Both the position numbers and the translations under genes were made by a program. Below, piece after piece: positions 1 to 23,700 of a stretch of DNA of 28,219 nucleotides. How positions within the stretch are numbered: position 1 is the stretch's first letter; each line of letters opens with the position of its first letter. The notes under the pieces were generated by a model that saw only the letters and a list, made by a program, of their open reading frames with translations, did not search any database and was not told where the DNA came from. The DNA comes from a virus (taxonomy: Duplodnaviria > Caudoviricetes): positions 1-28,219 of the IMG/VR virus record IMGVR_UViG_3300030331_005938. One strand, written 5' to 3'.

Positions 1-977
1 TCATCACCAACCTCAACAAGTGCATCATCTTGAGCATTTACTGCATCAATTACATCACCGTTTATATGAGTATCTATAGTTGTTCCATCTTCACCACGGT
101 TAACAGTAATATTATTTCCATCTATTTCTTTAATAAACATTAGTTCATCACCGATGGCAATGTAAGTATCCACAACCAAACTTGCAGTATTTTGAACCAA
201 GAATTTCCTTTGAGTTTTTGTTATATCCTCTGCAAGTCTTGTAACTCCATCGTCATTGTAATCTTTAAGAGCTCTAGGTGTGGCAATATATCTTTTAAAT
301 CTTTTTGCAGTTTTAGTATTTGTACTTGTATGGTAGTCAACTTGAACTTTCTTAATAAGACCACTTCCAGAATCTGATACTGGGCCAAATAAGTAAGTCT
401 TTGCTGTAAATCCTAATGTATGAGTTATAACTCTTTTCTGTTCAAATCCACTCTCATAATTGTCGTCAAAAGTTACACTATCTAAAATCATTGGTATATC
501 TCTTTTTTCACCAATTGCTTTGACTAAATCTACAGTTAAATTAAATGATGGTTGAAAATATGGTAATATCTGCTCAATAATTTGTAGAGAATCTTCATTA
601 TATTGAGTCATTGCATACAACTTAAAACTTAAATTATACGGAACTGGCATAAAAACTTTTCTTGCACTTTTAGATCCATCTTTTGTAAATGCTTTAAAAG
701 TTTGCATTGTTGAAACTTTTCTCGCAGAATCATATGATATACCGTCCATCTCAAATGCTAGACGGGGTAAAGTTATTGCAACTCTTTTTCTTAAATCTGG
801 TTTTTGCTCTAATCTTGCTAAAAACTTTTCTGTTGGGCCATAAGCAATTGGAACTCTTACAGTTGAAAATGCTCCACCTGCAGATGTTTGGTGTTTTATG
901 TCAATTGCATTAAAAAGAGTACCAAAGGATATAATAGTCCTTCTGATTATTTCATGGTAATAATAGGTTCCTAACAT
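1..977 (-). CDS. gp15: Tail sheath stabilizer/tail terminator protein gp15 (3' end outside window)
   Basis: Not in the ORF track. Manual translation from ATG at 977: MLGTYYYHEIIRRTIISFGTLFNAIDIKH...VRVPIAYGPTEKFLARL...ITLPRLAFEM...PVPYNLSFKL...QIIEQILPYFQPSFNLTV...KRDIPMIL...FTAKTYLFGPV. These are T4 gp15-family motifs. The frame is open to the window edge and follows gp13-gp14. Confidence 0.95.
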   Translation of the reverse strand, partial: MLGTYYYHEIIRRTIISFGTLFNAIDIKHQTSAGGAFSTVRVPIAYGPTEKFLARLEQKPDLRKRVAITLPRLAFEMDGISYDSARKVSTMQTFKAFTKDGSKSARKVFMPVPYNLSFKLYAMTQYNEDSLQIIEQILPYFQPSFNLTVDLVKAIGEKRDIPMILDSVTFDDNYESGFEQKRVITHTLGFTAKTYLFGPVSDSGSGLIKKVQVDYHTSTNTKTAKRFKRYIATPRALKDYNDDGVTRLAEDITKTQRKFLVQNTASLVVDTYIAIGDELMFIKEIDGNNITVNRGEDGTTIDTHINGDVIDAVNAQDDALVEVGD

Positions 978-1001
978 AACTTAAACAGAACTTATCCAAA
1001 C

Positions 1002-1009
1002 TATTTAGA
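1002..1009 (-). promoter_or_regulatory. Possible late promoter variant (TCTAAATA) for gp15
   Basis: One mismatch to TATAAATA. Overlaps the gp14 stop codon and lies about 25 nt upstream of the gp15 ATG. Confidence 0.5.
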
Positions 1010-2450
1010 AATCACCGAATGGATTGTCTTCAGAAAAGTCTATAATTGCATCTGCTTCAGACTCTACAAGTATATTTTCATTATAATTATCAAACTCATC
1101 CTGATCGGAAACACTTTTTACAATGTATTCAGAATCAGATCCTAAAAGTGTAGTTCCAATACCTACCACTGATTCACCAGGTGCAAATCCAACACCACCA
1201 ATATTTGTAACTTTGAGTATTCTATCATCTGCATCCCAATCAGCAACAATCGCTGTTGTTCCAGTTGAAACTCCTCTAACAAGTTCTTTAAACTGATAAT
1301 TACCAGTTGCTAATCCAGCTCTTGCTGGTGGATCAATTGTGACAGTTGGAGTTGCAGTATATCCAATTCCAGCAAAAGAATATCTGATTGAAGCAATCTG
1401 ACCAAGAGTGTTGACTATTGCTATTGCCTTCACAGTTGACCCAATACCAATATTTGTATCCAAACCAACAGCGTTTATGGTTACATTTGGAACAACACCA
1501 TAACTCGCACCACCGTTAATTATTGTTGGTATCGATATTGTTCCATCTGCTATAACTGCAGTTGCTGCAGCACCAGTTCCAAATGCGTTTTGACTTCTAA
1601 TTGTAATTGTTGGTGGATTTGTATAACCAAATCCAGGATTTGTTAACTCTATACGATCTATAGATTGTCCTGACTGACCAATTCTACTAGTCATAATTGC
1701 AACAGCAGTAGCGTTAATACCATCACTTGGTGCAGATGTTATTCCAACTAAAGGTGGAAGTGTATATCCAGTTCCATCATTAATTAAATCAACAAATGCA
1801 ACACCCTTTCCAACAGAAGTATTTCCAGCATTTTTTGATAACTGAACAGTTGCCGATGCTGTTGATGCAGCAATACTCACCATACTTAATCTTGTTGTAA
1901 ATCCAAACTCAACTGCTGCTCTATCTACCTCCTCAATTCCTGTATCAATATCTTCATCAAGTGCATAATCCATTACTTCACAACTTAAAGTGTAAACGTA
2001 AAGATCATTCAATTGATAAAAAGGTTTTTTTCCCTCAACATATTTAATTTCAAACATTGTATTATCAAGAGGAAAATAGATCAGATCACCTTCTTCTGGT
2101 CTTGTAGCTAGTTCTATCTGAATATCAGAAGTTAAAAAAGGACTTATAAAATCTTCATATCTTTCTTTTGATATAACAAAAGTTACTGCATCTGTAGTTT
2201 GTACTCCAAATTTTTGCAAAATATCTCCGTTACCTTCAAATCCCTGATAATTCAAAAGATATGCTTCCATACGATAAGCATCATCAAAAGTCGAGGCTAC
2301 AACCTCTTTCATGATGGTTTTTTTGTTTATGATTTTACGAGGAAGATAAACTATATCCTGCCCATAAATTTTTAGTTGCTCATTAATTAGATCTTGAACT
2401 AATCTCTGTTCACCTTGCGATCCTTGTAAAAAATACGGAGAAAGTGGCAT
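1005..2450 (-). CDS. gp14: Neck protein gp14 with inserted Gly/Thr-rich repeats
   Basis: N-terminal EQRLVQDLINEQLKIYGQDIVYLPR, FGVQTTD..TFVISKERY, RPEEGDLIYFPL..FEIKYVE..PFYQL and C-terminal IIDFSEDNPFG match gp14. Located between gp13 and gp15. Confidence 0.95.
   Translation of the reverse strand: MPLSPYFLQGSQGEQRLVQDLINEQLKIYGQDIVYLPRKIINKKTIMKEVVASTFDDAYRMEAYLLNYQGFEGNGDILQKFGVQTTDAVTFVISKERYEDFISPFLTSDIQIELATRPEEGDLIYFPLDNTMFEIKYVEGKKPFYQLNDLYVYTLSCEVMDYALDEDIDTGIEEVDRAAVEFGFTTRLSMVSIAASTASATVQLSKNAGNTSVGKGVAFVDLINDGTGYTLPPLVGITSAPSDGINATAVAIMTSRIGQSGQSIDRIELTNPGFGYTNPPTITIRSQNAFGTGAAATAVIADGTISIPTIINGGASYGVVPNVTINAVGLDTNIGIGSTVKAIAIVNTLGQIASIRYSFAGIGYTATPTVTIDPPARAGLATGNYQFKELVRGVSTGTTAIVADWDADDRILKVTNIGGVGFAPGESVVGIGTTLLGSDSEYIVKSVSDQDEFDNYNENILVESEADAIIDFSEDNPFGDF
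1320..1880 (-). repeat. About 4 tandem protein-level repeats (I-x3-G-x-GY-x3-P-x-V-x-I...A-x-A-x-A) in gp14
   Basis: LINDGTGYTLPPLVGI, LTNPGFGYTNPPTITI, IINGGASYGVVPNVTI, YSFAGIGYTATPTVTI. Boundaries approximate. Confidence 0.8.
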
Positions 2451-2454
2451 AATA

Positions 2455-3270
2455 TCATCCTATGAAATCAAGAGGTGGTAATTCGTATTCTCTCTTAAGT
2501 GTTTCTTCTAATTCTTCAAGTTCCCTAATTGCATCTTCATATATTTGTCTTCCATTCAACTGAACTCCACCAGGTAACATCACACCTTGGAATTTAATTA
2601 AATTCATTCCCCATTGTTTTTTAATTAATGATGTAGCATATTTTTTTAACCAAAAATCATTGTAAATTTTAGTAACATCATCTGGATCTAAAAGACGATA
2701 GCAATCAATTACTATAAAAGTATCATCAGACATTTGTTCAAAATCAATATCTAAATATAATCTTCCTTGTTTTCTATTAAATCTTATTTGGGTATCTGGT
2801 GTGATAATACGACTTAAATCTTCCAAATATGTTTTGGTCATTGTATAATTTAAAAGATCAAGTGCACCATAATAGTAAAGATCATTCAAAAATATTTGAT
2901 ATTTAATATTAAACAAACCACTTGATATGGTGTTATTATCCATCTTTAAAACTCTTTCTACACCTAATATGTGATCAGGTAATTGTAAAAAGTTTTGATT
3001 TTCCTGAAATTTAGTTGTTGTTATACCAACTGTAGAACTAGCTGTTGTTGTAGTGATACCTGTTCTCAATATTTCTCTTTCTTGTTCTGTTATCTTATGT
3101 TTCAATAACATCCTTTCCACACCATCAAAATGACGGTTTTGAAAATATTGAATTGCATCATCAATTAAATCTTCAACTTGATCATCATCCACATTAATTT
3201 CCAACACAGGAAATCCAAGTCTTCGCAGACAATAATCTATTAATTCCTGTCTAGTGGATGGTTTACTCAT
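2455..3270 (-). CDS. gp13: Neck protein gp13
   Basis: PSTRQELIDYCLRRLGFPVLEINVDDDQVEDLIDDAIQYF..HFDG and WLKKYATSLIKKQWGMNLIKFQGVMLPGGVQLNG match gp13. AAGGAG SD at 3281-3276 and ATGA overlap with the upstream ORF. Confidence 0.96.
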   Translation of the reverse strand: MSKPSTRQELIDYCLRRLGFPVLEINVDDDQVEDLIDDAIQYFQNRHFDGVERMLLKHKITEQEREILRTGITTTTASSTVGITTTKFQENQNFLQLPDHILGVERVLKMDNNTISSGLFNIKYQIFLNDLYYYGALDLLNYTMTKTYLEDLSRIITPDTQIRFNRKQGRLYLDIDFEQMSDDTFIVIDCYRLLDPDDVTKIYNDFWLKKYATSLIKKQWGMNLIKFQGVMLPGGVQLNGRQIYEDAIRELEELEETLKREYELPPLDFIG

Positions 3271-3443
3271 TTTTTCTCCTTTTTCTTGTCTTCCTCTAAT
3301 TTAAGCAGTCTTTGTTGTAAATCCATATACTCTTTTGTTATAGATTCTACTTTTGCTTCTAATAAAACATTTTGATTCACTACTGTTGATAATTTTTTAT
3401 GGTAATGATTAATTAAAATGTTCACATCAACTTCACTGTTCAT
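3267..3443 (-). CDS. Small coiled-coil hypothetical protein (58 aa; start revised from 3500 to 3443)
   Basis: MNSEVDVNILINHYHKKLSTVVNQNVLLEAKVESITKEYMDLQQRLLKLEE shows a heptad pattern. ATG at 3443 sits 4 nt after the fibre stop, with GGAGG at 3462-3458, so no 53-nt overlap is needed. Confidence 0.8.
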   Translation of the reverse strand: MNSEVDVNILINHYHKKLSTVVNQNVLLEAKVESITKEYMDLQQRLLKLEEDKKKEKK

Positions 3444-3447
3444 AGTA

Positions 3448-4881
3448 TTAGAATTGACCTCCATCAATTGTTGTTGTCCATTTAGGTATGCCACTGGCAT
3501 CAGTTGTTAGTACGAAGTTTGAGGTTGTTATACCTGCTGTAGTACCAGCCGCACCAACTATTTTACCTGTTGTATCAAAGTATAATACTCCGTTACCAGC
3601 AGTGGAGAAATCTCCATTCTGGAAGAATATACCTTTTATATCTAGGAAACCTTTAGTACCACTTAAAACATTACCAGTGATAGTTGCATCGGGTATATAA
3701 GTCCATGACCTTTCAGGTGCATTACTAGTTTCTCCAGTACTATCATTATAACCAAAGAATCCAGTTTTGTTATTTGCTACTCCAGTACCAGTGTTATAGT
3801 TAAATGAAATACCACGATCTGTATTTGTATCAAATCCGTGAGTAATTGTTAATTGTGTTGTAGTTGTTATACCAGCAGTTGTCTGTCCATCAATAAAAAT
3901 GGTTCCAATTCCTGTTCCACCTGGTTGTGTGGTAAAAGAATTTATTGTGGTGGTTCCAGCACCTGGTAGTGAACTACTACCACTTATGACATCACCAGTG
4001 TTAATACCAACAACGGAATCTAAAGTAATTGCTGATACACCAGATCCTACTGTAGAAGTAACAGTTCTTTTGCTTGATACATCACCAATATTCATTATTG
4101 GATCATTCAAAGTCGCATTAGTGGAATTAACAGTAGTTGTTGTTCCATCTACCTGTAAACTACCTTTGATGATAACCATACCATCACTATCTAAACCATC
4201 TGGGTATGGATCAATAAACAGTGTATTTCCACCACCAGATCTAGTTCTTATAACATTGGATGAAATTCCAATATTATCAACGGTTAATCCACCAAAAATT
4301 TCAATTTCTGTATTGTATACCCAACCTTTACCTGTTACTTGAACTTTATCTGTTCCATCTTCATCGTATTCAATACTTGCATCTTCACTTGCACCAAAGG
4401 TTAATTTGGTATCATCATTAATAATTACCTGTCCATCACCATTGGTTATAAATCTAATATCTCCATCTACATCGTTTGATGATATTGAATTTCCATCTAT
4501 TGTAATGTTATCTACGTTCCATTGGTTAACTCTTGGCATAAACCCTACGGCTGCAGTAACCTCTCCAAAACCTGTAGCACTACCACCTGGATGACCTCCA
4601 TTTTCTCTTTCAAGTATTGGTATGAATCCATTTGATAGTGTATTATTATTAGCATTCGAACCACCAGCAACCGTACCTGGTGTATTGCTCATCATATCGG
4701 TGAAATATTTACCGCCAATTACTATTGGATTTGCATCTGGACTAGTATTGTCTCCAACAAATAATCTTCCACCTAAATTGCCTTGGGTTCCATTTGAAAC
4801 TGTAACCGCAAGTTCACCAAAATCAATGGTTGGGGGTGCACTAGTGCCAGTTGATCTTCTTGTCCTTATTATGCTGGCCAT
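3448..4881 (-). CDS. Fibre-like virion structural protein (477 aa)
   Basis: N-terminal IIRTRRSTGTSAP..IDFGELAV resembles Mtd N-terminal/fibre anchor motifs. VDNITIDGNSISS, GSLQVDGTTTTVNST and DRGISFNY are typical trimeric fibre motifs. Gly/Thr-rich, ends IDGGQF. SD-like GGGGGA at 4896-4891. Confidence 0.8.
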   Translation of the reverse strand: MASIIRTRRSTGTSAPPTIDFGELAVTVSNGTQGNLGGRLFVGDNTSPDANPIVIGGKYFTDMMSNTPGTVAGGSNANNNTLSNGFIPILERENGGHPGGSATGFGEVTAAVGFMPRVNQWNVDNITIDGNSISSNDVDGDIRFITNGDGQVIINDDTKLTFGASEDASIEYDEDGTDKVQVTGKGWVYNTEIEIFGGLTVDNIGISSNVIRTRSGGGNTLFIDPYPDGLDSDGMVIIKGSLQVDGTTTTVNSTNATLNDPIMNIGDVSSKRTVTSTVGSGVSAITLDSVVGINTGDVISGSSSLPGAGTTTINSFTTQPGGTGIGTIFIDGQTTAGITTTTQLTITHGFDTNTDRGISFNYNTGTGVANNKTGFFGYNDSTGETSNAPERSWTYIPDATITGNVLSGTKGFLDIKGIFFQNGDFSTAGNGVLYFDTTGKIVGAAGTTAGITTSNFVLTTDASGIPKWTTTIDGGQF

Positions 4882-5109
4882 TTAAAAACTTCCCCCATTA
4901 ATGTTTAAATTTTGTGTTGCTCCTGGCGTTAGTTCATCAGTTGCTTCAAATTTACTCGTTGCTGCATTAAAAACTAACACCATTCCATCCTTTAAACCAC
5001 CAGATATATCCACATCTGATAATCCACCTAAAGTTCCTCCACTACCTGATATGGTGGATATGACCTTTTTGGCATTTCTTGAACCGACTCTGACTTTTAT
5101 ATCAGCCAT
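4882..5109 (-). CDS. Small virion/fibre-associated protein (75 aa)
   Basis: Contains LGGLSDVD...DGMVLVFNAATSKFEA, the L..L.DV...DG.VL.[YF] motif seen in phage fibre proteins. Ends INGGSF and is tightly packed between neighbours. Confidence 0.8.
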   Translation of the reverse strand: MADIKVRVGSRNAKKVISTISGSGGTLGGLSDVDISGGLKDGMVLVFNAATSKFEATDELTPGATQNLNINGGSF

Positions 5110-5114
5110 ATTAA

Positions 5115-5453
5115 TTAACCTGTAGTAACTCCAGCAGTAACAATTGCACTTCCACTAACAATTCTAGTTTTTAAAGAACCATCATTTAATAATACATCGT
5201 AACTATATCTACCTGCCTTCAAAGCAGATGTAATAGAAGATCCTAAAGATATTCTTAATTGTCCTTGTGTTCTGTTTGGAAATGACACTGTAAATGATGC
5301 CTTGTCCTTTAAAGAAGCAGGATGTTTTTTTAGTTTTGACGTGGCTGAAAAACCAGTCAAATCTAAAGGTGAGTTGGCCGAATCCTCTAAGTTGAAAATT
5401 TGGTCAAAATCAGCACCAGCATCGATTATTATGTTACTAATATATGCTGCCAT
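5115..5453 (-). CDS. Small beta-sandwich virion protein, BppU-N-like (112 aa)
   Basis: NIIIDAGADF...PLDLTGFSATSKLKK...G.L.ISL....T.ALKAGRYSYDVLL...RIVSG...V..GVT matches a common phage Ig-like/BppU-like pattern. Directly downstream of a perfect late promoter. Confidence 0.8.
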   Translation of the reverse strand: MAAYISNIIIDAGADFDQIFNLEDSANSPLDLTGFSATSKLKKHPASLKDKASFTVSFPNRTQGQLRISLGSSITSALKAGRYSYDVLLNDGSLKTRIVSGSAIVTAGVTTG

Positions 5454-5482
5454 TATTTAACTAATTAGAATCTATCTTGGAA

Positions 5483-5490: not shown

Positions 5491-5492
5491 AA

Positions 5493-5717
5493 TCATTTAT
5501 CCATAATATTTTTAAGAAGAGTTTTTATCTCTCTCATATCGTTTTTTAAAGAATCTAAATCCTCACGCATGTTATCAAATTTTCTTTTTTCCTCATATTT
5601 TTTTTGAGACAAACTTAAAAATTTATCAAATTCACCTTTATTTCTATTTACAATGGCATTAGAGTCCATATCTCTAACATGAGTTTTATCGGATTCTACT
5701 TTTAAATACCTTTCCAT
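5493..5717 (-). CDS. Conserved hypothetical protein with C-terminal coiled coil (74 aa)
   Basis: YLKVE....VRD..SNAIVN followed by heptads (MREDLDSLKNDMREIKTLLKNIM). TAATG stop/start overlap with the VrlC-like gene. Confidence 0.85.
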   Translation of the reverse strand: MERYLKVESDKTHVRDMDSNAIVNRNKGEFDKFLSLSQKKYEEKRKFDNMREDLDSLKNDMREIKTLLKNIMDK

Positions 5718-8700
5718 TAATCTATTTCAAATGATCTCAAAGCGATTGCTCTAAAGTTTTTAAGTCTAGGTGGTTTGGCCTGATTAGTGGATGTCATGAC
5801 AACTTTAATCATAAATCCGTTAAATTGAGGTGTATTTTCTGCAGTAAATTTATATTCACTGAAACTATTTCTGGTTCTATTTGGTTTTACAGAATTATCT
5901 GATAACCCATCCCCATTGAATGGAACGTAACTTTGTCTAACACCACTACCATCACTTCTAACTAATTTATAAAATACTCTTATATCACCTTCTGCCTCTC
6001 GATGTCCATCAAATTGAACTAATAATGAATTAGAAACAAATTCTAAATTAATCATTTTTGTTTCATATACTGCATTATTTGGTTCAGAACCTGGAATTTT
6101 TGTTCTATTATCAGTTTCAAAGTTATCAACTTTATCGTCTACAAGATTACTTAGTAAAATTGCATTAGCTGTATCTAAGTTAATCATTGGTGATACATCA
6201 GAATCATTAGTTGTAAGTGTTAGTTCAAGAGAAAGGGATTTTTGATTATCAAGTAGTTGGAATTCATTAGTTCCAGATGCTACCATTCTTGGAGTATCAA
6301 AATAATTAATCTTATTCAACGCAACCGTTTCATAACCCATATCATTAAATGATGGTTCATTTCCACTTAAACTTGTACCAGAAGTTGTTTTAATTCTAGC
6401 AGAAATATTTGTTCCAGTAGGTGTTATTGATGTTATTTGTGGATTTATTGCTTCAAAAGGTATATTTTGAGTTACACGTAAATCATTTCCACCACCAGTT
6501 TTAGTTGTTTTAAATGAAACTTCAGTAGATGCTGTAGATACTTTAACATGATAACTATTAAATGTTTTTTCTCTAGGATCAATATCGTGTCTTTTGTTAA
6601 TTTTTCTTAGAGATATACCGTTGAACTCATACTTATACACATATGCTTTTGCTTTGTGATTCGACTTTCTGCGTTCATCGTCACCCGAATCTATAGATCT
6701 AGTAATACCAGTTAAATCATTTCCTGATACACCTGTATATTTTATAATTTCTTTATCTATCTGAACAAATCCAGGAAAATCTGCAGAAACTGTTTGGTCT
6801 TCAAATTTATCAAATCCAGTTGATGAAGTAACGGATATGATAGTCGTATCATCATCAATTTTTTGTGTTAATGTAGTTGGTTTAACGTCTGAATTAAATC
6901 TTGTGATTTTAACTTCATTTGTATTTGAATGCATTCCATGATTTCTATGTCTAACTTTCATTGTATATCCATCTCTTACAGGATCTGGAATAACTGAAGT
7001 AACATCACCATCAGCGATTGTATTTTCACCTCCACCATTAGGGAAGTGCTTCATGTCTTGACTATCAATAAAATTATTTTTGACATCATCTAATATAATT
7101 ACATTTGTACCAGCAAGTCCGACATGACCCTTTACAATAACTCTAACTCCCGATCCAGTTGATCCAAGAGGATTTAACATTAATAAATCACCAGGTGCAT
7201 AACCAGAACCACCGTTTTGAATATTAATATTTGCAGCAGTTACTGCTCCATTTTGAACTGTGACATTTGCAGTTGCACCCTGACCAAATCCAGTCAAACT
7301 TGTAAATCCAATTCCACTGTATACTTGAGATCCACTTGTTGGTGTAAGTCCAATACCAGTATTTTCAACTCTCGTCAGATTGTTACCTGATGCTCCAGTT
7401 TTTATTGGGCCTCCAACAGCAAATACTTTTGCTGTATGATTAAAACTGTCTACCGTCTGTTCAAATTTATCTCCTTGTGTAAACACAGTTTGAGTTGTTG
7501 ATCCTAAATTAACACTAACTCTTTTTGAAAAAGCAATGGCTGGATTTTTTTTCTTTATCCTATGACGTTTAATTCTAGAGTTAAATAATAAAACACTAGA
7601 TGGTACATTTGTTACAAACTGTGCTTTGTTGAGTTTGAATTTAAGATCTTCATATTGACTTGGTGTCCATGTGCTATTATTTTGTGATTTAAACAGTGAA
7701 CCAAGAACAGGTTGAGTTGAATTTATTCCCTGAGTAATTAAATCACTCTCACCCATTCTATTGATAAATGCCAAGTAATTAAGCGTAGCTGGTGCCATTA
7801 AAACTAAAGCATACTCATATCCACTCTGCAAATATACAGGTGTTTTAAATTTAAATGATGTTGCTTCACTACCATCTTGAGATAATTTAACGTTTTTGGG
7901 TTTTATTTTTGTCTCAGCAAATGGAACTACTGTTTTAGTTGGTATTCCATCTCTCATGGTTCTTATCTGAACAGTTACTGGAATTTTTTCATCTTTAGTT
8001 TTAAAGAATAATTCTCCACCAGTAATAAATATACCATTTTTATAAGTTTCGGATTTTACTTGAAATGACTGTGCTAAAGGATCATCGTCATCAACTTCTT
8101 CAATATCTATATCTGTTTCTATGATAGTTTCTGTTTCAGTTCTATCTTTTGTAAATTTTCTGGTTACATCTTTAGAACCAATTTGAACTCTTTCTATTTG
8201 TGGTTGTTTAATTGATAAAGTTTGCTCTTGAGTGCTTGTTTGATATCCACTTGCAAAATATTCTGCCTCTGCTGAACTTGAACCAGGATCTAATATACTT
8301 GCATTACCAGAATCTGTTGTTATTCTAATTGTATTATTTCCTGTTGTAAATACAGGATTGCTTGTAATTTTAGGATCAGGAATATGTAAGGAGAAAATTA
8401 AATCACCTTTTTCATCACTGAATAATGCTAAATCCTGAACAGTTGCTTCTGCAGTTCCAGATTCATTTACAATTTCCATACCCTTGATTACATATCCACT
8501 ATTTTCAACATTATTTTCTAATGATAAATCTGCAGTATCAATATTCAATACTTCACTAGTGCTTGAGTATGCTGATGATAATGTTGTAGTTGGATATGGT
8601 AAATTGGTAATTGTATCTTCTGGATCATTATATGGCCCCTCCTTATGATTAAGAGTTGCAACTCTAAATCTAATTTCAGGAGTAGTGGTAAATTCATTAG

Positions 8701-11700
8701 ATTGTGATATACTTTCTACAATATCATTAACTGCAAAAGTACCTTTTACCATTTTAATTGGAAGATACTTAGGAACTGCATATTTTGTTAAATCAGTGTT
8801 TTCCATGAAAACATAGAATCTTGTATTTGGTTTTAATCTCTGAGCAAAAACCTCAACATTTCTTGATCTCACATTATAAAGGATATTCATCCCTACAACT
8901 TTTGTTCCCAAGTCAATAACTTCTTGACCTGCAGATAACTCTAAACCAAATGTTTTTTCTACACCAGATTCTTCAAATGTTTGTCTAATTGTATTTTCAA
9001 CATCCTTAGTTGTTGTTGTGGTTGTTACTATGTTATTTCCATGATCTTGAACGTCTCTAGTTGTAGATGAAGATAAAATTTCCTGTCCAATCAATTCTTC
9101 ATCAACTAAAGTAGCACTATCTCTACCATTCCAAGTAGTTTCATGAGAATTCCAGAAACTTGATGCCATTCCACCATTATCATCATCTACTCCCAATAAA
9201 TCGGCTATACTATCAAAAACACTATCTACTTGAATATTTTGTGATGGTAAAACTGTTTCTTCAATCCAAAAATCAGAACTTGGAGTTAACTCAATTGATC
9301 CAACGAATATATCTGTGAGGAATGGATTTAAATTTTCAACTCTAGTTGCATTTGGTTGATCTATAAATGTAACGTCTGTATAACTTAGAGTTAATGCAGG
9401 CCCTCCTCTAGTTATGTTGAGATCATCAAAATCTTCAGTAAATTTATAATCAGTGGTTATTGGGTTTTTAGATGAAGTATTTGTTTCAAAAACTAGTGAT
9501 ATATTTCTTTCTGTAGATCTAGGTCTACATTCTCCCTTTACTATATCAATATCAAAATTAGATTCTCCTTTTAAATTATGTGTTTTATGAGTTTTAAAAT
9601 TATCCACATAAAAACCAGATTTAAATTTATCTAATCCTGTGTTAGGATCTTTTACCGATAAGTTTTTAGTATCAGTTTCAAGTAGAGATAAAGTTGTATA
9701 ATTTTCTAAAGTTTTTATTCTATGTTCAAGACTACCAATATCTCTCATGGTATATCTTTTATGTGGAACAGTTTTAGTTAAAACTTCATTTGCCTCACGA
9801 ACATATGGAGGATATGAAAGTGTTGCGACTTGGAAAGATCCCTCATCATGAACTGGTGATTTTGGTACTCTAGATGGTTTTCCCTCTTTTAAAGTAAAGA
9901 CTCCTTCTTTTGTTAAGTATAATCTATCAACTCTACCTAAGTAGTAAGAATAATCCACAACAACAGTTTTATTTGTCACTACTGTTTCGGAATTAGATGA
10001 TGAAAAATTCCTAGACGCATAAGAGAATGGAGAATTACTATTTGCTGTGTATGGTGCAACTCTAGGTCTAAAATCAATATAATCTGAAGCCCAACTGTCA
10101 AAAACAAATGGCAAATCTCTTGAATAATCAAGAGTATTGTAACTGTTTACAGTTTCAATATTACCGACTGACTCATCGTTTACTAGGCGATCAAAGATAA
10201 CTCTCAATTTACGAGTTGGTTTTTCTGTATCTGGATTTCTAACAAGTCTTGCATAGTCTACGAAATCATTTCGATGCCCACTATCTAAAGTAAAATCATC
10301 AAGTATATTTGAATCACCAATAGTTATATTAGATATTTTAGCTGTTATCCCAGAGGTCTTCAGAGCGATGATTTCATCTAATTGGAATACATTTTCGTTT
10401 TCATAAACAAAAGATAACTGAGTTGCTCCTACAACCACTACACGAGCAACTGCACCTGAAGTCCCACCAATAAATTGTTCCCCAACCAATACATTGCTTG
10501 TAAATGTATCACTCTGCTCACTAACAGCTATTGCTGGTAATTCAGGATCATTAGTATCATTTGATTCTAATACTGCTAAAACACGAGTTGCCTCTGGAAA
10601 ATTTAATGATATTTCTTCGTCTTGAACTCTCGTTCCATAAACTTCATTAAAAGATAATCCATCATTTAAAGATGTTGATCCAATACCAGATCCTGATAAC
10701 TCAGATTTACTAACAATTAAATTTTCGCATCTTGAAATAGTTTTTTGTTTTGAAACTAATTTACTTCTTCTTATTGCAGCAGTTAATTCTGCAGTTCCAT
10801 TTGGTAATCCAGAGATAGTTACTGTTTTAAGATTACTTGAAACAGTTACCTGAGAATCAAAAAGAGTTATTGGTACATTATTTACATCTAAAAAATAATT
10901 TGATGAACTAAACAGTTCAAAAAATAATTCACTAGTATCTCCACCAAGTGAAGAAATATTAAAGGTAGCAGAACTCGCTGAAACTGTTGTTGTAAATTGT
11001 TTTCTAGTAATATATGAACTGTCCAGAACATTCATGGATGAAATATATTTGTCTGCTAATTTAACTCTTAAACCAGGATTATCCGATTCATTTAAAGTTG
11101 GAATTAAAACAGAAATGGAAACTGGATCAACATTTTCTACTGAACCATCACAAACGTTAAAAACATTTGCATTTGATGCAAGACCAACACTATTGACACC
11201 TACTTGAGTTACTGTATTGAATTGTGGAAGATCATTTATTCCTCCTCCTGCTGAATATGAAATTACATCACCGACTTTTAATTGACTTCTAAAATCAGCA
11301 ACTGATGCAGATCTTAACGTATTATTATTGGTTATATTAAATTGAGATCCTTCGGGAAATACTTGTTTTTTACGATCTAAAACAGTATTTGCAGCAAATG
11401 TTGTACTTCCAGATCCTACTCCTCCAATTGAACCACTAGTGCTATGAACTGCTTTAATTGATTCAATATCATTATCAACTATTGCTGTAACATTATTACC
11501 AGAATCAATTCCATTTATAATTAGTGGTTCATTAATTTGAAATTCTCCATTTACATCACGAAGAGTTATTGAAGTATTATTAGTAACTGCTGAAACCACA
11601 TATCCTGCCGATCCACTAAATTTACCTTTTACATAAGAATCTGCAGTAATAGTTGAACTATTGGATATAGTTAAAACTGTGTAGAGTTGAATGTCATAAA

Positions 11701-13091: not shown

Positions 13092-14684
13092 TTAGAATTC
13101 TATGACGATTTTTACTTCTTCTTTTTGTGAAGTTGTTCTTGTTACTGGTGCTCTATTATCAACATAGATAATGTCTCCAGAATATTTTTTAACATCTGGG
13201 TTTGCTTTTCCGTTAACAAATGTTTGACCTAAACTTTGGCTTGCACCACCGACAGTAGCAGTACCACCGTTAAAATTGTCATCAACAGTTGCATTTTCTG
13301 GACTTCCTCCAGTAATTACAATATTTTCACCTACAAAATCAAGTTTTTGATAAGAGTATTGTGAAAGTGTTGAAAAACCAACTGGTTGATAGTATTTTAG
13401 TACTCCAGTTTCTGGATCCCAAGAAGCAACATAACCAACCGCAGTAGATCCGAGTCCAACAGTTTGAGTAATTAAACTGTTAGAAGTATATGTTATATCT
13501 GAAATTTTTTTACTAGAACCATCAGCAGGTTTTAACTTTAAAGCACTTAAATTAGTTGCAGTCGTACTATTTAGAAGGTCAGTTCCACTTAATTGAAGTG
13601 GGTTTCTAACTATTCCAACACGAGAAAAGTTATTACCTACAACATAATCGGGAGCATCATTAATATTATTATCAAATTTAGCATATGTCATAACTCTAAA
13701 TCCACCCAATTCACGATATACATCAGCACCATGTCCCCCTTTTGGAGGTATTACCACTTCAAAACTTGCACCACTTCCTGCTTCAAGATCTTTCCCGTTA
13801 TATGTTCCAGATTCAAATCTAACTTCAGCATAAGTATAACCACTTCCACCAACTACACTTTCTACACGTTCAATTGATTTATTACTAATTTTTATAGTTA
13901 CAAATCCACCAGTTCCATCTCCATCGATTGGAATACCTGAAATTGAACCATTAGGAAAACCATCTATATCAATGGCAGTTCCTTTACTTTTTAATACAAC
14001 AGTTTCAATTTTTCCGTCTACAGCAGCATCTTTAATTGCTAAATTAGAAGTATCTCCCCATTTTTGTGGAAGTGGTATAAATTTTGTTGTAACAAATTTT
14101 ACTATATCTGATGGTGTGATACTGTAAAGGTATTTCCACAAATACCCATCAGATCCATTACCAGCTGCCTGTGGAGTTGTATTTGTATGAGTTGGTTCTA
14201 TTTCAGATCCCACTCCCTTAGTATTATCTGGACTTGTTCCGTTGTTAATACAAAGATAAACTTTAAATTCAGAAGTTACAACATAGTAATTTGACCCATA
14301 AAGAGATGTAGAATTAGTGTTTGGTGTTCTATTCTCATCAGTGTAACTATTATCAGCTGAATAATTATTTCTATACATTTCATATACAGTTCCCACTTGC
14401 CAATTTATTCTTGGAATTACCCTTCGAACATCATTTGATGTAATTTTTTTTAAAAATAACATACTATCATAGTAAAAACTTTCTTGAGAAAAAGAATCTA
14501 CTGGAGCTGGCAATTCTGCACCCCAATTAGGAGCTCCATAATTTTTAATGCTTATATTTGTGGGATTTGGATGTCCCAGAAACGCATAATAATTATTATT
14601 TCCAGATGTGCCAATACCTACAAAACTATCAACAAAAGTTTCTGCATTTAAAATTCGATATTGGTCAGTGATTATTGCGGGCAT
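13092..14684 (-). CDS. gp8: Baseplate wedge subunit gp8
   Basis: MPAIITDQYRILNA, RINWQVGTVYEMY, YYVVTSEFKVYLCINNG, DGYLWKYLYSI, PPKGGHG and SGDIIYVDNR...QKEEVKIVIEF match gp8. Synteny gp6-gp7-gp8. Confidence 0.92.
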   Translation of the reverse strand: MPAIITDQYRILNAETFVDSFVGIGTSGNNNYYAFLGHPNPTNISIKNYGAPNWGAELPAPVDSFSQESFYYDSMLFLKKITSNDVRRVIPRINWQVGTVYEMYRNNYSADNSYTDENRTPNTNSTSLYGSNYYVVTSEFKVYLCINNGTSPDNTKGVGSEIEPTHTNTTPQAAGNGSDGYLWKYLYSITPSDIVKFVTTKFIPLPQKWGDTSNLAIKDAAVDGKIETVVLKSKGTAIDIDGFPNGSISGIPIDGDGTGGFVTIKISNKSIERVESVVGGSGYTYAEVRFESGTYNGKDLEAGSGASFEVVIPPKGGHGADVYRELGGFRVMTYAKFDNNINDAPDYVVGNNFSRVGIVRNPLQLSGTDLLNSTTATNLSALKLKPADGSSKKISDITYTSNSLITQTVGLGSTAVGYVASWDPETGVLKYYQPVGFSTLSQYSYQKLDFVGENIVITGGSPENATVDDNFNGGTATVGGASQSLGQTFVNGKANPDVKKYSGDIIYVDNRAPVTRTTSQKEEVKIVIEF

Positions 14685-14705
14685 TGATACTTACATTTTT
14701 TTGAT

Positions 14706-14713: not shown

Positions 14714-14717
14714 CCTG

Positions 14718-17700
14718 TTATGAGTAAGAAGTTCTCAGAGGTAGAGTTCTTACAATTTGAGCTGAGGTTTCGATTCCAAGTAAACCGTTTTGGTTATGGA
14801 AAGTAAATGGTTTTGAAGTAGAACTTCTACTTACATTAATTGCACCCCAACTATAATTTCCAGATTTGAAATGAGTAGACAAACCTGCAGTATTTATTCC
14901 TGAAACTGAATTGACATTTGCAAAAATTCTTGTTATTGAAGATCCAACAGAAACAAAATGCTCGACATAATATACATTATCTAAGAAACTATTACCAATA
15001 CTTACAGTTTCTGGCCCAGAAGAAGTTGTTCTTATTCCAGTGATTCCATTTCCTATAAATGTATTTTCAATTACAAAATAATCACCAGTTGATATTCCTG
15101 ATCTTGTTATTTTATTTGTTGATCCTGGATTCTGAGAGTATATTCCAAAATCTTCAGTAGGATCTGGTTTAATTTCAAAAAAGAGAGCAGGGCCGCTTGT
15201 ATTGATACCTACTGAACTAACACCAATACCAACTACGATTCCATAATCTCCAGCATATGTTACCCTTTCAATTGTCTCTACAACAGCAGTTGTTCCTAAT
15301 CCAACTATGCTTATATCGTTTTGAGTTTGTCCTAAATTATCCACTTGTTGGAATAACCAAGTATCTTTAACACATATTTTTGTATCAGAAGAACTAATAG
15401 ATTTTATAATTCCTGTTGTTGGTAGTATTTGTGGTTCCAAAGAATTTCTTTCTTTTGATATACTCTGACCATCGATAACTACATCAGTTGTTTGCTTTCT
15501 CCACATCACAGGACGAGAGAAATCAGGATCAGTGGATATACCAACTCCTGAATATGTTGTGGTTTCTACAGTATCTGATGCAATTAACTCATATACAACT
15601 CGATTACTTTGCTCTGATTCTTTATCTTCGACAATTCTAGATTCGGTTCTAACCTTTGAATCATCATCAATTGTAACTCTAACAGATAAATTTGATCCAG
15701 AACCACCAATCGCATTTTTTATTCCAGATGTATATAATGTTCCAGTGTTTATAATACTTACACCTGTAACTTCTCCAAGAGGATCACCATTTTCATCAAC
15801 TGAAGATGATATTGAATCAATTTTTAGTTTAACTAAATCTGCATTTGGATTTCTAGGAAAACCTGTATTACCAATTCCTGATTCATCAGATCCACCCAAG
15901 AGTTCCACTTCTTCACCTATACTATATCCAGTTCCACTGTTTACTATAGTAACAGTATCAACTAAATTATGAGGAGTTGCTGTTACAATACCAGAATTAA
16001 CAGTTTCTTCACTAAAGTATTGCAATCTTAATTCATCACCTGGTTTTATTGTTTCATCAACATCGGTTTCAACAAAGTCGTCATTTGATCCAGTATAGAA
16101 ATAAATTTTAAATTTACTTCCTGATTTTGGAGCTTCTTTGAAACTAAATCTTGTTCCACTTTCAAAAGTATAGTCTTTATCTGGTATTTGTAAAATATCA
16201 TTAATGAAGACTAAGAAATTATTTTTAAGAATAATTCCTGATCCTTCTCTTGCCACTATACTATAATATTGTTTATCTGTGATAGTTCTAGTAAGAAGGA
16301 ATGATTTTCTAAATCCATTAAATTGTGAACTAAAATCATCAAGTTCTAACAACTGTCCGAAAGTCCATCCTGAGAATTTATCTTGGAATTTATTTTTTAC
16401 AGTAATGTTAAATGCACTTGTTCCTATTCCAACTTGGAATGGTAAAGTTGTCAATTGTAAAGTATCCTCAATTTCATAACCAATACCACGATTTGACATG
16501 TTGAACGATATAATACTTCCACCAGTTCCCACAACAACATCCATAGTAGCACCTGATCCGTTACCACCAGACAGAGGTATATTTTTATAAGGACTTGGAG
16601 GTGCCACTGTAACAAAATTAATTCCAGTTGAAATTCCTGTGGATGTATAACCAGTACCAGGATTATTAATAGTCACAGATGTAACTACACCAGCAGTAAC
16701 AAAAGCAGAAATGGCTGCTCCAACTCCAGTTGTTGAACTAACAGATACTAATGGATTTGCTAGATAACCTGCACCTCCACTTGCTATGCCAACAGATTGA
16801 ATTGTTCCACCTGCAGATACAACTGCAGTAAATATTGCTTTTCTTGGAATTTGATATCCACTTCCTATTCCAACATCAAATTCATTAATAATTCCACCTC
16901 TAGGTAAATCTTTATCTAGAGAACTTCCAGTAAAATCAATTGTCTGCCCAGATCCAACTAATCTGTAATCTGATTTATTAATATCCCCAACATCTCCATA
17001 AAAAGGTTTTTGGAAAATATTATTAATCAATAGTGTTCCAAATTTTTCACTAGTAATTCCAGATATATCATTTCCTCTTGATGTTATAGCAAACTTATCT
17101 GTAGATCCATCAAATCTATCTGATATATCATCAATAATTAAATTAGTGGTATAATCTAATCGATAATATGCTCTTCCAGAAAAAGTGGAAAAAGTAACAA
17201 TACCAGAACTAGCAGTCGGGCCATAAGGTGCTTCAGAGAAATATATTCTTCCCTGATCAATTCTATAATCACCTTTAACTACTGTAACTGCTGCACCAAC
17301 AGTATGTGCTGCAGAAACAGTTCCCATTTCACCTCTTATTACATTTAATGAATTTGTAGATCCAACACCAACTAAATTTACTTTAACTATTTCATCTTCA
17401 ATTTGAATCAATGATTTTCCTGAAATTTCTGAAACATCATTTAAAAATATAATATCTGTTGATAATCCAACTGCAGTAGATAATCCTACAGAAATAATTG
17501 TTGAAAATCCAACAGGACTTTGAATCATATTATCAATGGAAATTAAAGTTCTAATTGTAGCATCATCCGATGGAACAAAAATAGTATTGGTGTTACCAAT
17601 ACCACTTGTATTAGTAAAGGAAACTGCAACTCCAGCAGAAGCAAAACTGGCAGCAATCGCAATTTTAACTTTATCATTATCAACTTTAATTGCGAAAATT

Positions 17701-20700
17701 TCTGATGGTAATAAAGTTGTTGCAGCAACACCTGTATTTGTATCTGATGTAGTTCCAATTCCAATTGGAGACTGACCAGAATGAGGTTTATATATTAATC
17801 TTTCACCTGTATTAAAATTATGATTAGGGATAGTTAACTGATGATTTGTAGTGTTTATAGTAGATGGGTCAAATTCCCTATGGAATAATGAATCACCTCC
17901 AGTAAATAAATTAAAATTAGTTGTTCCTATGACTCCACCACCAGTTGAAGTTACGATTCCTGTAAATTGTGAACTTATATCATCAATTAAAAGAACTTTA
18001 TTAGATACTGATTCATTATAATCTGTTAAAACTTTAGATCTAAATATGACTAATTTTGATAAATTTTCATCTTCAGTGTCCTCACCAACCATATCATAAT
18101 AAAATCTTTCATGAACAGATGCTTCCTCATCAATATTAACATCAAAGTCTATTTGTGATTCTGCAGTTGGTTTTAGATTTGTTTTTCCTTCGGTTGCATT
18201 AGCGGTTGTACCTATACCTAAATTACAGAAATTCTTAAATCCTGCAATATGACCTAAACTATTAACAGAATCTTTCCACATTTCAAATGGAACATCACCT
18301 TTTATTGAATAAGAAAATCTTTGATAATAATCATTATCATGTATTTTTTGGATATCTAAATTTAATTTACCAACATCATCTTTCCAACCATTAAAGTTTC
18401 TTGCAGTGCTGTTTACATCTAAATCAAAATCAAATTTAAATTGTTTTGTTACTGTTCCTTTATTATCACTTATAGTTCCTCTAATAACATCACCCTCTAC
18501 AAAATCTCCATTAGCATTAAATATTTTTAAAGATTCTGATAATTGATCCCAACCATTTTTAGCTACCACTCCCAAAGTATTTTTTCCAATAACTTTAACA
18601 ACTTCATTATCATTGAAAGATGTCTTTTTAAATACTGGAGAAAATTCTGCTAAATTTTCTTTTTTTATAACTCTACCAAAATTATTATCTACTTGATAAA
18701 TTCCCCCACTTGCTCCAAGACCAACTAAAGAGTAACTTACGGATTCTTCACCACCTCTAGTATCAATACCAACTACAGTGAAATATTTGTAATTATAATC
18801 ACTTGAATTATATCCATCTGCTTGATTTGTTATTTTAATATTTTCAACAAATATTTCATCACCTATCTCAAAGGGAAAACTACCAGAATTATTGTAAAAA
18901 CCACTGCCAGATCCAGAGTCTGGAATTGGTGCTCTTAATTCTAATGTAACTGTTTTATTAGAGTCAGTTGATGCTCCTTTTACAACAATTCCGTTAGAAT
19001 TTGTTATTGGTATTATTCTAAGATCTTCAGATAAACCACTTTCATTTGCTAAAATTTTAATATTATTAACTGAAGATCCCGTTAAAAATGTCTGTGCAAC
19101 TATAGATGTTTTACCTATAGCTAACACATTTGGTGGACTTGTATAATTAATTCCACCTGAAATTATATCTATGCGTTCAAGAGTTAAAGTATCCTTTAGT
19201 TCTAAAATTAAATTACTATCTGCTTTTGGTTTTAAAGTTTTATCTGGTGAAAATTCTAATCCTTGATTCACAACTTGAGTGTCAGAAACAGATCCAATTT
19301 TATCTGTTTCTACAGATACAACAGCGTTTACTCCAGTTGTAGTTCCTATGGAAGTAACAATTGGTAAATTATCAACATTTATTCCATCACTAAGAACTTT
19401 TACAGAATATATTCCTCCAATTTCTCCTGTTGATTGTGTTGAATAAAATGCAGATGAAAAACCTGAAGATGTATACGAATTAGTTTCTGCTATAATTTTC
19501 GGATTAAAATTGAATGTAGTACTTCCGATTCCAGTAACTATGTGTTCTCTATTAAAAATAGAATCAACTACTTCTATCTTGGCATAATCAATAACTCTTT
19601 CATCAACTGGTAAAAATAAAGTTTTACTTATATTATTATTTTTTCCTTCAATTTTATAGAAAAATTCAGTAGATAAAGAACTTCCAACAGATATTAAAAT
19701 ACTACCACTTGTTTTAGTGATTAAATTTGTGTTATATTTTGATTGAAAATTTATATCTTCATAAAAGTCTATATCAAAATCATTTAGACTTGAATCTGAT
19801 GTTATTAAATTTATTTGGTTATTTTTATAAAAAGTTAATTTTGGATTTATTTTTGATATTTGATGATTCTGTCCACTAGTTGCCCCAATACTTATATAAT
19901 TAACTGGAAACTGAGATAAATCATATAAATTTTCTGCTAATCTAATATCATTTATTGAATCTTTAATTACATAGTAAACACCATTATTAACTAATGGAGT
20001 CGCTGGTGTTGATGAATTATAAACAACTAAATCTCCAGTTTTAAAATCATGATTATCAATTTTTATCCTAGAATTTGTTGTTCCTATTCCTATAGCTGAA
20101 TCTAGAAAAGATATAGGATTAACTACCAACTTTCCAATAGTTGAATTATATCTTAAATCAAAAGTTTGTGTATTACTTGAAGTTATATGTAATTCAAATT
20201 TATCTCTTTCAGATAACCCATGCTGCTGTCCTGTAGTTGTAGCTGTGGCAACAGTTACTGTTCCATTTATTTTTCTTACAAAACCAGAAATATTTTCAGT
20301 TATTCTTTCAATCTTATTATCATCACCATTACTGATATTGATTGATTCAAAAAATATTTGATTAGAATTAAAATTTGTTTTTTCTGTTGATAATCCAATA
20401 AAATCATCGTTTATTTTAGAACAATAAAATGTGCCAATCCCAGCTAAATCAAATGCATTTGATAAGTTAACATTTTTTGTTCCCTTAACAGTTGATCCAA
20501 TAGAAGTTAATCTTACTTCATCACCATTTTCAAAATTATGATTTGGTAGATATATTGCTTTTGCTGGAATTGATTTGTTAATTGGTAAACTACCAGCAAA
20601 TCCAACTACTACATTGGTAGTTGTTGTTCCTATCCCAACCGATTTATCCAATTCAAAATATCTTGTTGCTGATAACTGTACATTTTTATTTTTAACATCC

Positions 20701-23700
20701 TTAGATATTGGATAATTAAATGATATTTCAGATCTTTTAACTATGGTTCCTGCAGAATGAGTAGATGATGTTGTTGAATTATGTCCTCTTCTAACTCTAT
20801 ATCTGTTATTAACATCATCATGTCCAAGTATAAGAAACTGTTCATTTCCTATTTCAATAACATCATCAACTTTAAATTTTCTAGAAATAGTAGAATCAGA
20901 AAAAGTTACAAATGTTGTGATTCCAGTTGCAGAAACATCTAAAATATTTGTTGATAACCCAGAACTAACTGTTGAAACTCCTATTGTTCTAACTCCCTCC
21001 AAATTTTTGTAACTTGTTGATGTTATTCCTGAAATTTCTACAATATCACCATCAGAGAGATTATGAGGAATTGTTGATATTCCTGTAACTTTTCCATCCA
21101 ATACTGTAAATATAAGATTATCTACTATTGTATTCGTAGTTTCCACAGAAACAATAGGCTGTCCTATCACCTGATCAACTTTAGCTAAAATAGTAGGATC
21201 ATTGAAATTTAATTTATCATTTACTTTGTAATTAGATCCAAACTGATCAATTTTAATACCTGTTATTGTAGATGATTCAATTGAACTAACTTTTATTTCT
21301 GCATTTGAATTTAAAGAATCTTGAAGTAAAGGATATCTCCTAAACTCATCATTTAATCCTAAATGAGTAACATTTCTTTTATAATCACCACTATTTAAAA
21401 TAGTATCTAATTGTTTACTATCAACCGTTAAGTTAAATTCATCTGTAAGATCACGATGTGAAAATGTTATATATGGAAATGAAGGATTTTTAGTTGTACT
21501 GTCTATAGTTGAAAAATATGCGTATGTCCCCTCTGGAAAATCAGAATTTATTATAAATTTACCATTATTTTCATCTAAATCTCCACTTCCATTATAAGTA
21601 TAATCTTTAATGAAAAAACCATTGCCATAAGATGAAGGTCTTAATTGGGGATCAGAAATTGGATTAAGAATGTAACTAGATCTTAAAAAGGTAAGTCCAA
21701 TTCCTATTCTTTCTCCAACTGGCCCATATATTGGATTACCATCATAAGACCAGCCAACAATTTTTGAATGATTGTCAGTTGATTCTGCAGTATTAGTATC
21801 ATCGATATTATCTGTAAGTAAAATACGATATTTCTTTACTGGATAAAATGAACAGATACTATTATTTTTCGATGTTTCTCCACGTATTTGAATAAATTGA
21901 GAGTTATTTTCAGTTAGAGTATAATTATATCTTTCTACTGCATTTATTTTCCATTCATGTATTTTAGTGTTAATAATTTCACCAGATCCAGCAGGAGTGA
22001 TTTTTACAAAAGTATTATTTAAATTATAACCAGATCCACCCTCAATTATAGTAACTCCTGTAATTGTTCCATTTGAAACTATAGATTTTAATTCTGCAAA
22101 TTGTCCTACAGTTCCAGATGTGCCACCAATTCCAATAACTTCAAGATTTGGTGGAGTTGTATAGTTAGTTCCACCATTAATGATGTCAACATCTGTTATT
22201 CTACCATCAACAATAATTGGACGTATAACCGCATTTTCATCTCCAGTTAATAATTTTATTTTGGGTGGATTTATGTAATTAATAATATTTGTAACTCCAT
22301 ATCCAACTCCTCCGTCTTCAATATAAACATTTTTTAATTTACCGTTAACTACAGGTGTAGCAGTAGCTTTAAAATAATCAGGAATTGAAGTTGTTGTTCC
22401 AACAGATACTACACCTTCAATATTAACTTCTATATCTGGATATTTAAATGTGTGTGTTCCCACGCCAACACTATTTAAATTTACATATATTTTTCTCTCA
22501 TAATTTGTATTTGTTATTGCATTTATTGTTCCAGCATCACTTAATTTAAATTTATCACTATCAATAATTGTCACTTGATATGTTTTTGATGTTGATAATC
22601 CAGATATAACTGAACCATCAAATTGATATTCTAAAACATCACCATTTTTCAAATTGTGATTCTTAGCATAAATGTAATTATTTTCAACATTTACACCACT
22701 AAAAGTTTCTAAAAGATTACTAGTTGGATAGTTATTACTTCTTATTGAAATTTTATGATTATCATATCCCGATCCAGAATCATTAACAATTATTCTATCA
22801 ATAATTTTTCTTATTTTTTTGGATCTAAATGTATGACTTTTGTTTCCATCATCTAAAAATTCTATTAAATTTGTTTTATTTAATGCTCTTTCTTGATTTA
22901 TTGCTAATTTAAATGAATTATCATCAATTTTTGCAATAAAATAAGTTGTTTCAGATGTCAATCTATCAGTGTTAAATCCCACATTAACAGCAGTATTGAT
23001 TCCAATTGGTGTTCCTGTGGCGATATATGTAACCTCCTCTCCATCTAAAAATCTATGATCTCCTATAATTTTATTATTTGTTACATCTATTTCAGACTCA
23101 ATGAATGTTTTGCTATGAGTAAATCCTCTCATTTTTGCTTCACAAATAGCACCAGATCCATTTCCACCAATTACTTTTACTGATGGCGTGGTTGCATAAT
23201 CAAATCCTTTTTTATCTAAAACTATTTCTGATACTGATCCTGAAAAATTAGCATTAGCTAGACATCCATTTCCATTATCATCCAATATCGATAATGATGG
23301 AGGTTGAATAACATTATAATTATCTCCAGAATCCAAAACTTCAATTTCATCAATCTGTCCATAAAAAACTGAGTCGTTTGAAATTGGTGAATGATACTCT
23401 ACACCGTTTAAAGATAATCCTATTGGCCCAGTAATATTAGTGCTATTAACTTTTATTTTTGGTTTTCTGAATATTCTTTTAAAATTATTTTGATTATCTA
23501 ATTTTTTACCATCATGTAAATCTGCAGGTGTTATGGTATGGATACCAACTCCAACATTGTTATATTTAATTTTTTGAAAATTATTAATATAAATGTCAGA
23601 GGAATTTAAAGATAATCTAAACGTATTATCATCAACTACATTTACAAAATAATAACCACTATCAATATCAAATAATCCAGAATTGGGTATAATTGACAGG

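Follow-up and report, generated by a model that had tools for sequence, protein, structure and literature searches.

Loss of GGWCC by synonymous recoding of Gly-Pro codons in an uncultured T4-like virus that probably infects marine cyanobacteria

The virus record IMGVR_UViG_3300030331_005938 (28,219 nt, 31% GC), analysed here over its complete length and referred to as the window, probably belongs to an uncultured T4-like virus of marine cyanobacteria and contains no GGWCC. Its absence raises the question of which enzyme the virus may avoid and whether that enzyme belongs to a host or to a phage. An earlier note on this DNA, made by eye, had reported neither GGACC nor GGTCC, and a computational count confirmed zero for both, with five GGCCC and five GGGCC. 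Based on 300 synonymous-codon shuffles, 10.7 ± 1.5 GGWCC sites are expected (z -7.4, the lowest of all 5-mers), close to the ten or so that had been estimated from composition, and a maximal-order Markov model gives 7.5. GGSCC shows the highest z of the 5-mers, with 10 sites versus 1.1 expected under the same shuffles. This excess rules out GGNCC as the target, and together with the presence of GGCC (13), CCWGG (20) and GATC (120) it agrees with the earlier claim that the gap is specific to W.

What keeps the contig free of GGWCC is the use of GGC or GGG in all of its Gly-Pro pairs. The ten long open reading frames (ORFs) hold 10 such pairs, five GGC-CCN and five GGG-CCN, and these account for all ten GGSCC sites, at exactly the plus-strand coordinates that had been listed. 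The genes themselves lie on the minus strand. Two of the pairs are in gp15, namely Gly198-Pro199 (GGC-CCA, 382..386) and Gly47-Pro48 (GGC-CCA, 835..839), and three are in a gene of 2456 aa, namely Gly1893-Pro (GGC-CCA, 7407..7411), Gly1484-Pro (GGG-CCA, 8634..8638) and Gly1229-Pro (GGG-CCT, 9399..9403). The remaining five are in gp7: Gly3499-Pro (GGG-CCA, 15013..15017), Gly3440-Pro (GGC-CCT, 15190..15194), Gly2764-Pro (GGC-CCG, 17218..17222), Gly1263-Pro (GGG-CCA, 21721..21725) and Gly695-Pro (GGG-CCA, 23425..23429). The earlier note had placed the sites in the same three genes; its label 'VrlC-like' for the 2456-aa gene rests on gene position in Synechococcus phage S-SM2 and not on direct comparison. 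Glycine is otherwise encoded mainly by GGA (393) and GGT (301), with GGG (35) and GGC (19) being rare. Far from being equally common before other residues, GGC or GGG was found at 44 of 738 Gly codons that do not precede Pro (6%), the other 694 being GGA or GGT. The probability of finding GGS at 10 of 10 Gly-Pro pairs by chance is 5.7e-13, which, with the shuffle and Markov expectations, rules out chance or base composition as the cause. Gly-Pro contributes approximately 9 of 11 expected sites and only ~1.4 of 10.7 are expected out of frame. GGWCC is absent from every frame and from intergenic DNA, a result with low out-of-frame power in the window alone.

The recoding extends to the close relatives of the virus and has a sharp boundary. 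Among 80 viral gp6 loci, all 12 with at least 79% identity to the window lack both GGWCC and CCGG, and below 79% only 4 of 68 are GGWCC-free, each with just 0.1-1.4 sites expected. A gp6 tree, from which two short matches were excluded, groups 11 of those 12 with the window as a clade (SH-like approximate likelihood ratio test, SH-aLRT, 100). The gp15 set comprises 160 loci, some of them duplicated between collections. All 59 loci at ≥88% identity are GGWCC-free (457 kb, duplicates included), the 31 at 75-87% contain 88 sites with six loci free, and the 70 below 75% contain 466 sites with none free. The check across relatives that had been proposed thus yields a purge that is clade-wide at ≥88% gp15 or ≥79% gp6 identity, with sisters keeping the site. 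At gp15 Gly198, GGC is present in 51 of the 51 unique clade sequences covering the site, and at Gly47 the clade has GGC in 45 sequences and GGG in four (n = 49). Sisters at 84-85% gp15 identity, which have the same codon bias, use GGA or GGT at the orthologous Gly-Pro codons, and the remaining 18 Gly columns of the clade gp15 are mostly GGA or GGT.

Clade contigs were extended by searches with gp15, gp18, gp22, a gp23-adjacent ORF and a helicase, and GGWCC is absent from the whole of clade records G001, G002, G003 and G013. Clade records are 4-26% complete, none exceeds 52 kb, and the replication and photosynthesis regions lie outside them. A gp15 search of genome_contigs returned no confirmed relative. 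The trait is labile, since other GGWCC-free loci fall in a separate, mixed branch of a FastTree phylogeny of 46 subsampled gp15 proteins. A few relatives are exceptions, including L340, with a helicase 97% identical to that of G001 and two sites, and L187, L196, L201, L233 and L313, with one to five; they are perhaps mosaic or belong to sister lineages. GGWCC is also missing from unrelated records, namely G007 (119 kb), G006 (66 kb), G014 and the complete Methylophilales phage Melnitz (Kyanoviridae), which infects OM43 and has no site in its whole 141.5 kb. None of eleven named phages examined over the structural region (~27-50 kb each) is GGWCC-free, S-SRM01 being partly depleted (4 of 10).

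GGWCC is not the only missing word. CCGG, overlooked by the earlier note, is also absent from the window (0 versus 13.7 ± 3.3 by codon shuffle), and GTAC (30 versus 79) and AGCT (29 versus 57) are low by the same measure. The contig from 1 to 28219 further lacks GCGC and CGCG, for which the counts in coding sequence (0 of 4 and 0 of 3 expected) reach significance only in pooled relatives. Clade DNA pooled to 218 kb, its records not being independent, gives observed over expected values from a first-order Markov model of 0/137 for GGWCC, 0/86 for CCGG, 0/52 for GCGC and 0/28 for CGCG, and CCGG is absent from all gp15 loci at ≥75% identity. Phage P-SSM2 has no CCGG, GCGC or CGCG over 252 kb and keeps 347 GGWCC, and on this basis the GGWCC purge is the newest layer on an older purge of the other three words common with P-SSM2. 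Kyanoviridae commonly show an absolute loss of other words. The mirror image of the purge, no GGSCC with GGWCC kept, was observed over whole or near-whole genomes in S-SSM7 (NC_015287.1; 150 GGWCC) and P-TIM68 (NC_028955.1; 105 GGWCC), the latter also being nearly devoid of TCGA (11). AGCT and GGCC are nearly absent from many sister lineages (L021-L047 and neighbours) and are both tolerated by the window clade. GATC is strongly depleted in Melnitz (23 in 141.5 kb).

Potential host enzymes were sought in 401 Cyanobiaceae genomes, following the earlier suggestion to search for GGWCC nucleases and methyltransferases. A nuclease of the SinI/AvaII family (PF09570) was found in one of them, the Prochlorococcus-like G075, where it is directly followed by a C5 methylase. 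A profile of 13 homologues of this nuclease matches 6G3B, 6S48 and 6S58 (E=4e-70), which are structures of AvaII, an enzyme that recognises and cuts G^GWCC (PMC7337904). The G075 enzyme is predicted to cut GGWCC from its family and from the depletion of its own genome, which has 60 GGWCC versus 162 ± 10 expected (0.37) and 162 GGSCC versus 124 (1.31) in 200 kb away from the restriction-modification (R-M) locus. The GGWCC ratio is 0.85 in nine other small Cyanobiaceae genomes pooled, and 0.71-1.0 individually. The shift in G075 resembles a weaker form of the GGW-to-GGS signature of the phage and suggests long carriage of the system. The TdeIII family, which includes GGWCC cutters, was detected in one of the 401 genomes (G266), and the Eco47II family in none, in a search that detected no positive control. 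The G075 methylase has one other close match among the 401, at 40% identity in G284, where it faces a TdeIII-like ORF. G075, G284 and G266 are genomes of 1.4-1.8 Mb, each with just two phycobiliprotein genes side by side, the layout of low-light Prochlorococcus. In two Prochlorococcus-like genomes a nuclease is paired with a methylase, at L499:1372-3193 and L655:1468-3531, the types being AvaII/SinI and TdeIII-like.

On balance we read the purge as avoidance of a host AvaII/SinI-type (Type IIP) restriction enzyme, an explanation to which we give slightly more than even weight, with the host probably being a low-light Prochlorococcus-like lineage. Incoming unmethylated phage DNA would be cut at GGWCC, and GGC or GGG would be the only silent escape at Gly-Pro. 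Selection would hold these costly GGS codons because Gly-Pro makes nearly all GGWCC in an AT-rich genome. Sisters that keep the site would use other hosts or methylate it. Methylation is not a requirement for keeping it, as S-SSM7 retains its sites with no N6_N4 methylase match (C5 methylases not searched). The selection by a GGWCC-targeting nuclease that had been proposed is supported, the changes being synonymous, opposed to the AT bias, sparing of GGSCC and fixed in the clade at orthologous codons. The earlier note had left the source of the nuclease as either host defence or phage; the host now has the better direct support, and a phage source yielded no match for three known families. The recoding, its synonymous nature and specificity, the clade boundary and the AvaII-family pair in a GGWCC-depleted Prochlorococcus-like genome were all observed directly; cleavage, the link to the host and the direction of selection are inferred. 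Several observations weigh against a host enzyme. Few of the hosts sampled have a GGWCC system (SinI 1/401, TdeIII 1/401, Eco47II 0/401), G075 is the sole member of its genus in the genome collection, and many Prochlorococcus are reported to lack any R-M (PMC8262939). P-SSM2 and P-TIM68, both phages of Prochlorococcus, keep 347 and 105 GGWCC, and G075 tolerates 37% of its expected sites whereas the phage has none. No link between the phage and G075 was found, and no single-cell runs are listed as holding window positions 3-4881. Furthermore, completeness is 26% for the longest clade record, such that an unrecognised family of phage nuclease could escape the search, and in S-SM2, of the same virus family, an absolute purge accompanies a lone nuclease of the phage.

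The responsible gene is not in the window, as the earlier note had stated, its ten long ORFs being structural or of unknown function. Two profiles, built from 2 and 3 peptide patterns, produced 46 candidates for AvaII/SinI and 223 for TdeIII in viral_contigs, none of which was confirmed, and the AvaII and TdeIII profiles likewise gave no confirmed relative in 5.57 Mb of viral loci. TdeIII and Eco47II were not matched in 34 records, nor were SinI/AvaII, TdeIII or Eco47II in complete Melnitz, and no C5 methylase was found in five clade records. In the GGWCC-free G006 and G007, 90 ORFs (110-520 aa) compared with Pfam matched no restriction family, and tblastn of INPHARED phages for GGWCC nucleases yielded nothing beyond one Streptococcus phage and an unannotated record of 4 kb. 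These negative results apply to clade records of partial completeness (4-26%) and to restriction enzymes, which diverge fast.

The neighbourhood of the clade's ResIII-type helicase, across 80 relatives of that helicase, contains many methylases and nuclease-like ORFs, with no nuclease-like ORF common to all clade loci. By BLASTP, no nuclease-like protein is common to GGWCC-free lineages yet missing from five keepers, with the exception of one ORF in which a GIY-YIG-like motif was recognised by eye. A 207-aa ORF between the helicase and methylase of G001 has no Pfam match and only unnamed Atlas neighbours, its cluster being represented in 5 of the 80 helicase loci. CTAG is missing from S-SM2 over the 118 kb examined (0/59 for the structural region), and the phage encodes, two genes upstream of the helicase, the MjaI-family nuclease SSM2_066 (E=1.5e-47; NC_015279.1 50147-50674; L337, L338), a family found in one of five phages. 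No N6_N4 methylase match was found in S-SM2.

With these data, the purge may be viewed, more tentatively, as self-protection from a methylase-free GGWCC nuclease of an unrecognised family, belonging to the phage itself or to a rival phage. If the phage's own, a version we regard as rather doubtful, the nuclease would cut host or competitor DNA while the purge spares its own genome. S-SM2 provides a precedent, with its CTAG zero, MjaI-family nuclease and lack of a methylase match, and methylases and nuclease-like ORFs, with a match to MvaI/BcnI among them, abound near the helicase in relatives of the clade. A PvuII-like lead sits in a lineage without GTAC, the absolute zeros and the flipping of the trait among close relatives fit gain or loss of one gene, and the rarity of host GGWCC systems favours a phage-borne nuclease. 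However, neither the searched fragments nor complete Melnitz gave a match to the SinI/AvaII, TdeIII or Eco47II families, and the clade helicase loci have no nuclease-like ORF in common. The only shared candidate, the GIY-YIG-like ORF, is also in L380, which holds five GGWCC, and L340 has two sites despite a helicase 97% identical to that of G001. Nor do zeros need a recognisable enzyme of the phage's own, because complete phage genomes with CCGG or GCGC zeros had no match to the HpaII, MspI or HinP1I families.

A cutter in the form of a lone nuclease of other phages in the same host, used in co-infection and survived by the clade through purging its site, is unlikely. Lone nucleases do exist in Kyanoviridae (S-SM2), a lack of GGWCC recurs in lineages with different hosts, the OM43 phage among them, and hosts seldom carry GGWCC systems. 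Set against these points, no GGWCC-family nuclease was confirmed in viral_contigs, the INPHARED search gave only the two records above, and the cell densities of the open ocean should make co-infection uncommon. It is highly improbable that no nuclease is involved and that the gap arose as methylated cytosines mutated, or from a preference at Gly-Pro related to codon pairs or translation. CpG-containing words are absent too, and the Melnitz C5 methylase adjoins a TET-like oxygenase. Deamination, however, would alter Pro or Gly, not shift GGW to GGS against the AT bias, and GGSCC stands at 10 versus 1.1 expected. Out-of-frame GGWCC is missing as well, though few sites are expected there, and the 84-85% sisters use GGW at the same Gly-Pro pairs with the same codon bias.

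Complete or near-complete elimination of Type II sites has been reported in roughly one viral genome in ten by Rusinov et al. 2018 (PMC6286503). The window resembles their virulent double-stranded DNA phages in having completely lost a short palindromic Type II site (PMC6286503), and differs in that four words are purged together and that host and enzyme are predicted only. As in Type II site avoidance, the site is far below composition- and codon-aware expectation, and the recoding is protein-neutral and frame-independent. Neither GGWCC nor cyanophages, Synechococcus or Prochlorococcus are mentioned in the main text of PMC6286503. AvaII/SinI R-M, which recognises GGWCC and not GGSCC, is an exact match to the gap, but its gene is neither in the window nor in any clade fragment seen. 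S-SM2 has likewise purged one palindrome absolutely by synonymous change; it carries the cognate nuclease itself, whereas in the window clade none was found among three families searched. The absolute absence of the site that characterises such a self-purge was observed in the clade, with few exceptions in possibly mosaic relatives. P-SSM2 shares the CCGG, GCGC and CGCG zeros of the clade but not the loss of GGWCC, while Melnitz shares the GGWCC zero but keeps CCGG and GCGC and infects OM43. N4-methylcytosine (m4C) at GGWCC was reported in three marine Myoviridae-like viral metagenome-assembled genomes by Hiraoka et al. 2022 (PMC8919816); those viruses methylate the site that the window clade removes, which shows that the site is contested in the sea, without showing by whom. 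Among open-licence papers, judged by title or the start of the abstract, none was found describing a GGWCC purge or lone cyanophage nucleases, the GGWCC matches being on dZ DNA, archaeal R-M and haloviruses.

The ten long ORFs of the window, all on the minus strand, form a T4-like baseplate and neck module running from gp25 to gp15. These are gp15, a tail sheath stabilizer that runs off the contig end (3..977; phrog_227, E=4e-91), gp14 for head closure (1005..2450; phrog_460, E=2e-118), the head-tail adaptor gp13 (2455..3270; phrog_211, E=2e-49), a 477-aa protein of unknown function (3448..4881; phrog_15769), a tail fibre assembly protein (5115..5453; phrog_3304), the 2456-aa virion protein, VrlC-like by its position as in S-SM2 (5717..13087; phrog_358, unknown function), and the baseplate wedge proteins gp8 (13092..14684; phrog_438), gp7 (3597 aa, 14718..25511; phrog_2885), gp6 (25515..27392; phrog_219) and gp25 (27392..27793; phrog_261). 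By gp6, the nearest named phage is S-SSM7 (Kyanoviridae) at 57% identity, compared with 48% for P-SSM2. The T4-like core structural genes in cyanophage order, the closest similarity to named Kyanoviridae and a Kyano_Gp96 match in clade record G001 are consistent with membership of this family. A virulent lifestyle is suggested by the structural module and the relatives, as seen in 28 kb.

Other genes of the relatives bear on restriction more generally. A 205-aa nuclease-like ORF at L396:8384-8998 (+), also in L401 and L407, has a PvuII-like Atlas lead (0.93, the family being on 44% of cluster members), with no methylase called beside it; this lineage has GTAC 0/136 and no GGWCC, and the ORF is a candidate lone GTAC cutter. 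The N6_N4 methylase of G001 (L164:9408-10229, -; SPPY motif) is 76% identical to that of S-SSM5 and adjoins the helicase in most helicase loci. It is absent beside the helicase in the G014 lineage, where CCWGG is depleted (10/40), a hint that this type may methylate CCWGG; S-SSM7 also lacks it yet keeps CCWGG. Between gp16 and gp17, G001 encodes an S-adenosylmethionine lyase family protein (PF23780, E=3e-15; L162:9092-9799, -), a possible anti-restriction gene. In Melnitz (L613:4010-6191; MZ577097.1) a C5 methylase is followed by a TET/JBP oxygenase annotated as hypothetical, likely a cytosine hypermodification pair. A PD-(D/E)XK-like ORF with an NPPF-type methylase occurs at L359:103-1153, L375, L381, L340 and L393, in P-SSM2 (L641:7251-7754) and in P-TIM68 (L631:7192-8275); the PD-(D/E)XK motif was read by eye and the scanned member has no Pfam match. 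This is possibly a phage-borne R-M pair shared with Prochlorococcus phages. An MvaI/BcnI-family nuclease (E=1e-41; L371:1137-1823, +) is inserted directly before the common N4 methylase, and CCSGG is already absent via the CCGG purge.

Site avoidance is a strategy already described (PMC6286503), of which the window is likely a very clean case. What it adds is a predicted host for this clade of uncultured phages, via a Prochlorococcus-like AvaII-family lineage with the same GGW-to-GGS shift, and it bears on the importance of R-M in picocyanobacteria, reported to carry few systems (PMC8262939). With its sharp boundary, at a gp15 identity between 85% and 88%, the purge serves as a marker of host switching or of nuclease gain. 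If the cutter is phage-borne, restriction without modification would be extended to a new specificity. Together with the CTAG cutter of S-SM2, this would mean that marine T4-like phages wage restriction without modification, swap nucleases at the helicase hotspot and recode their genomes accordingly.

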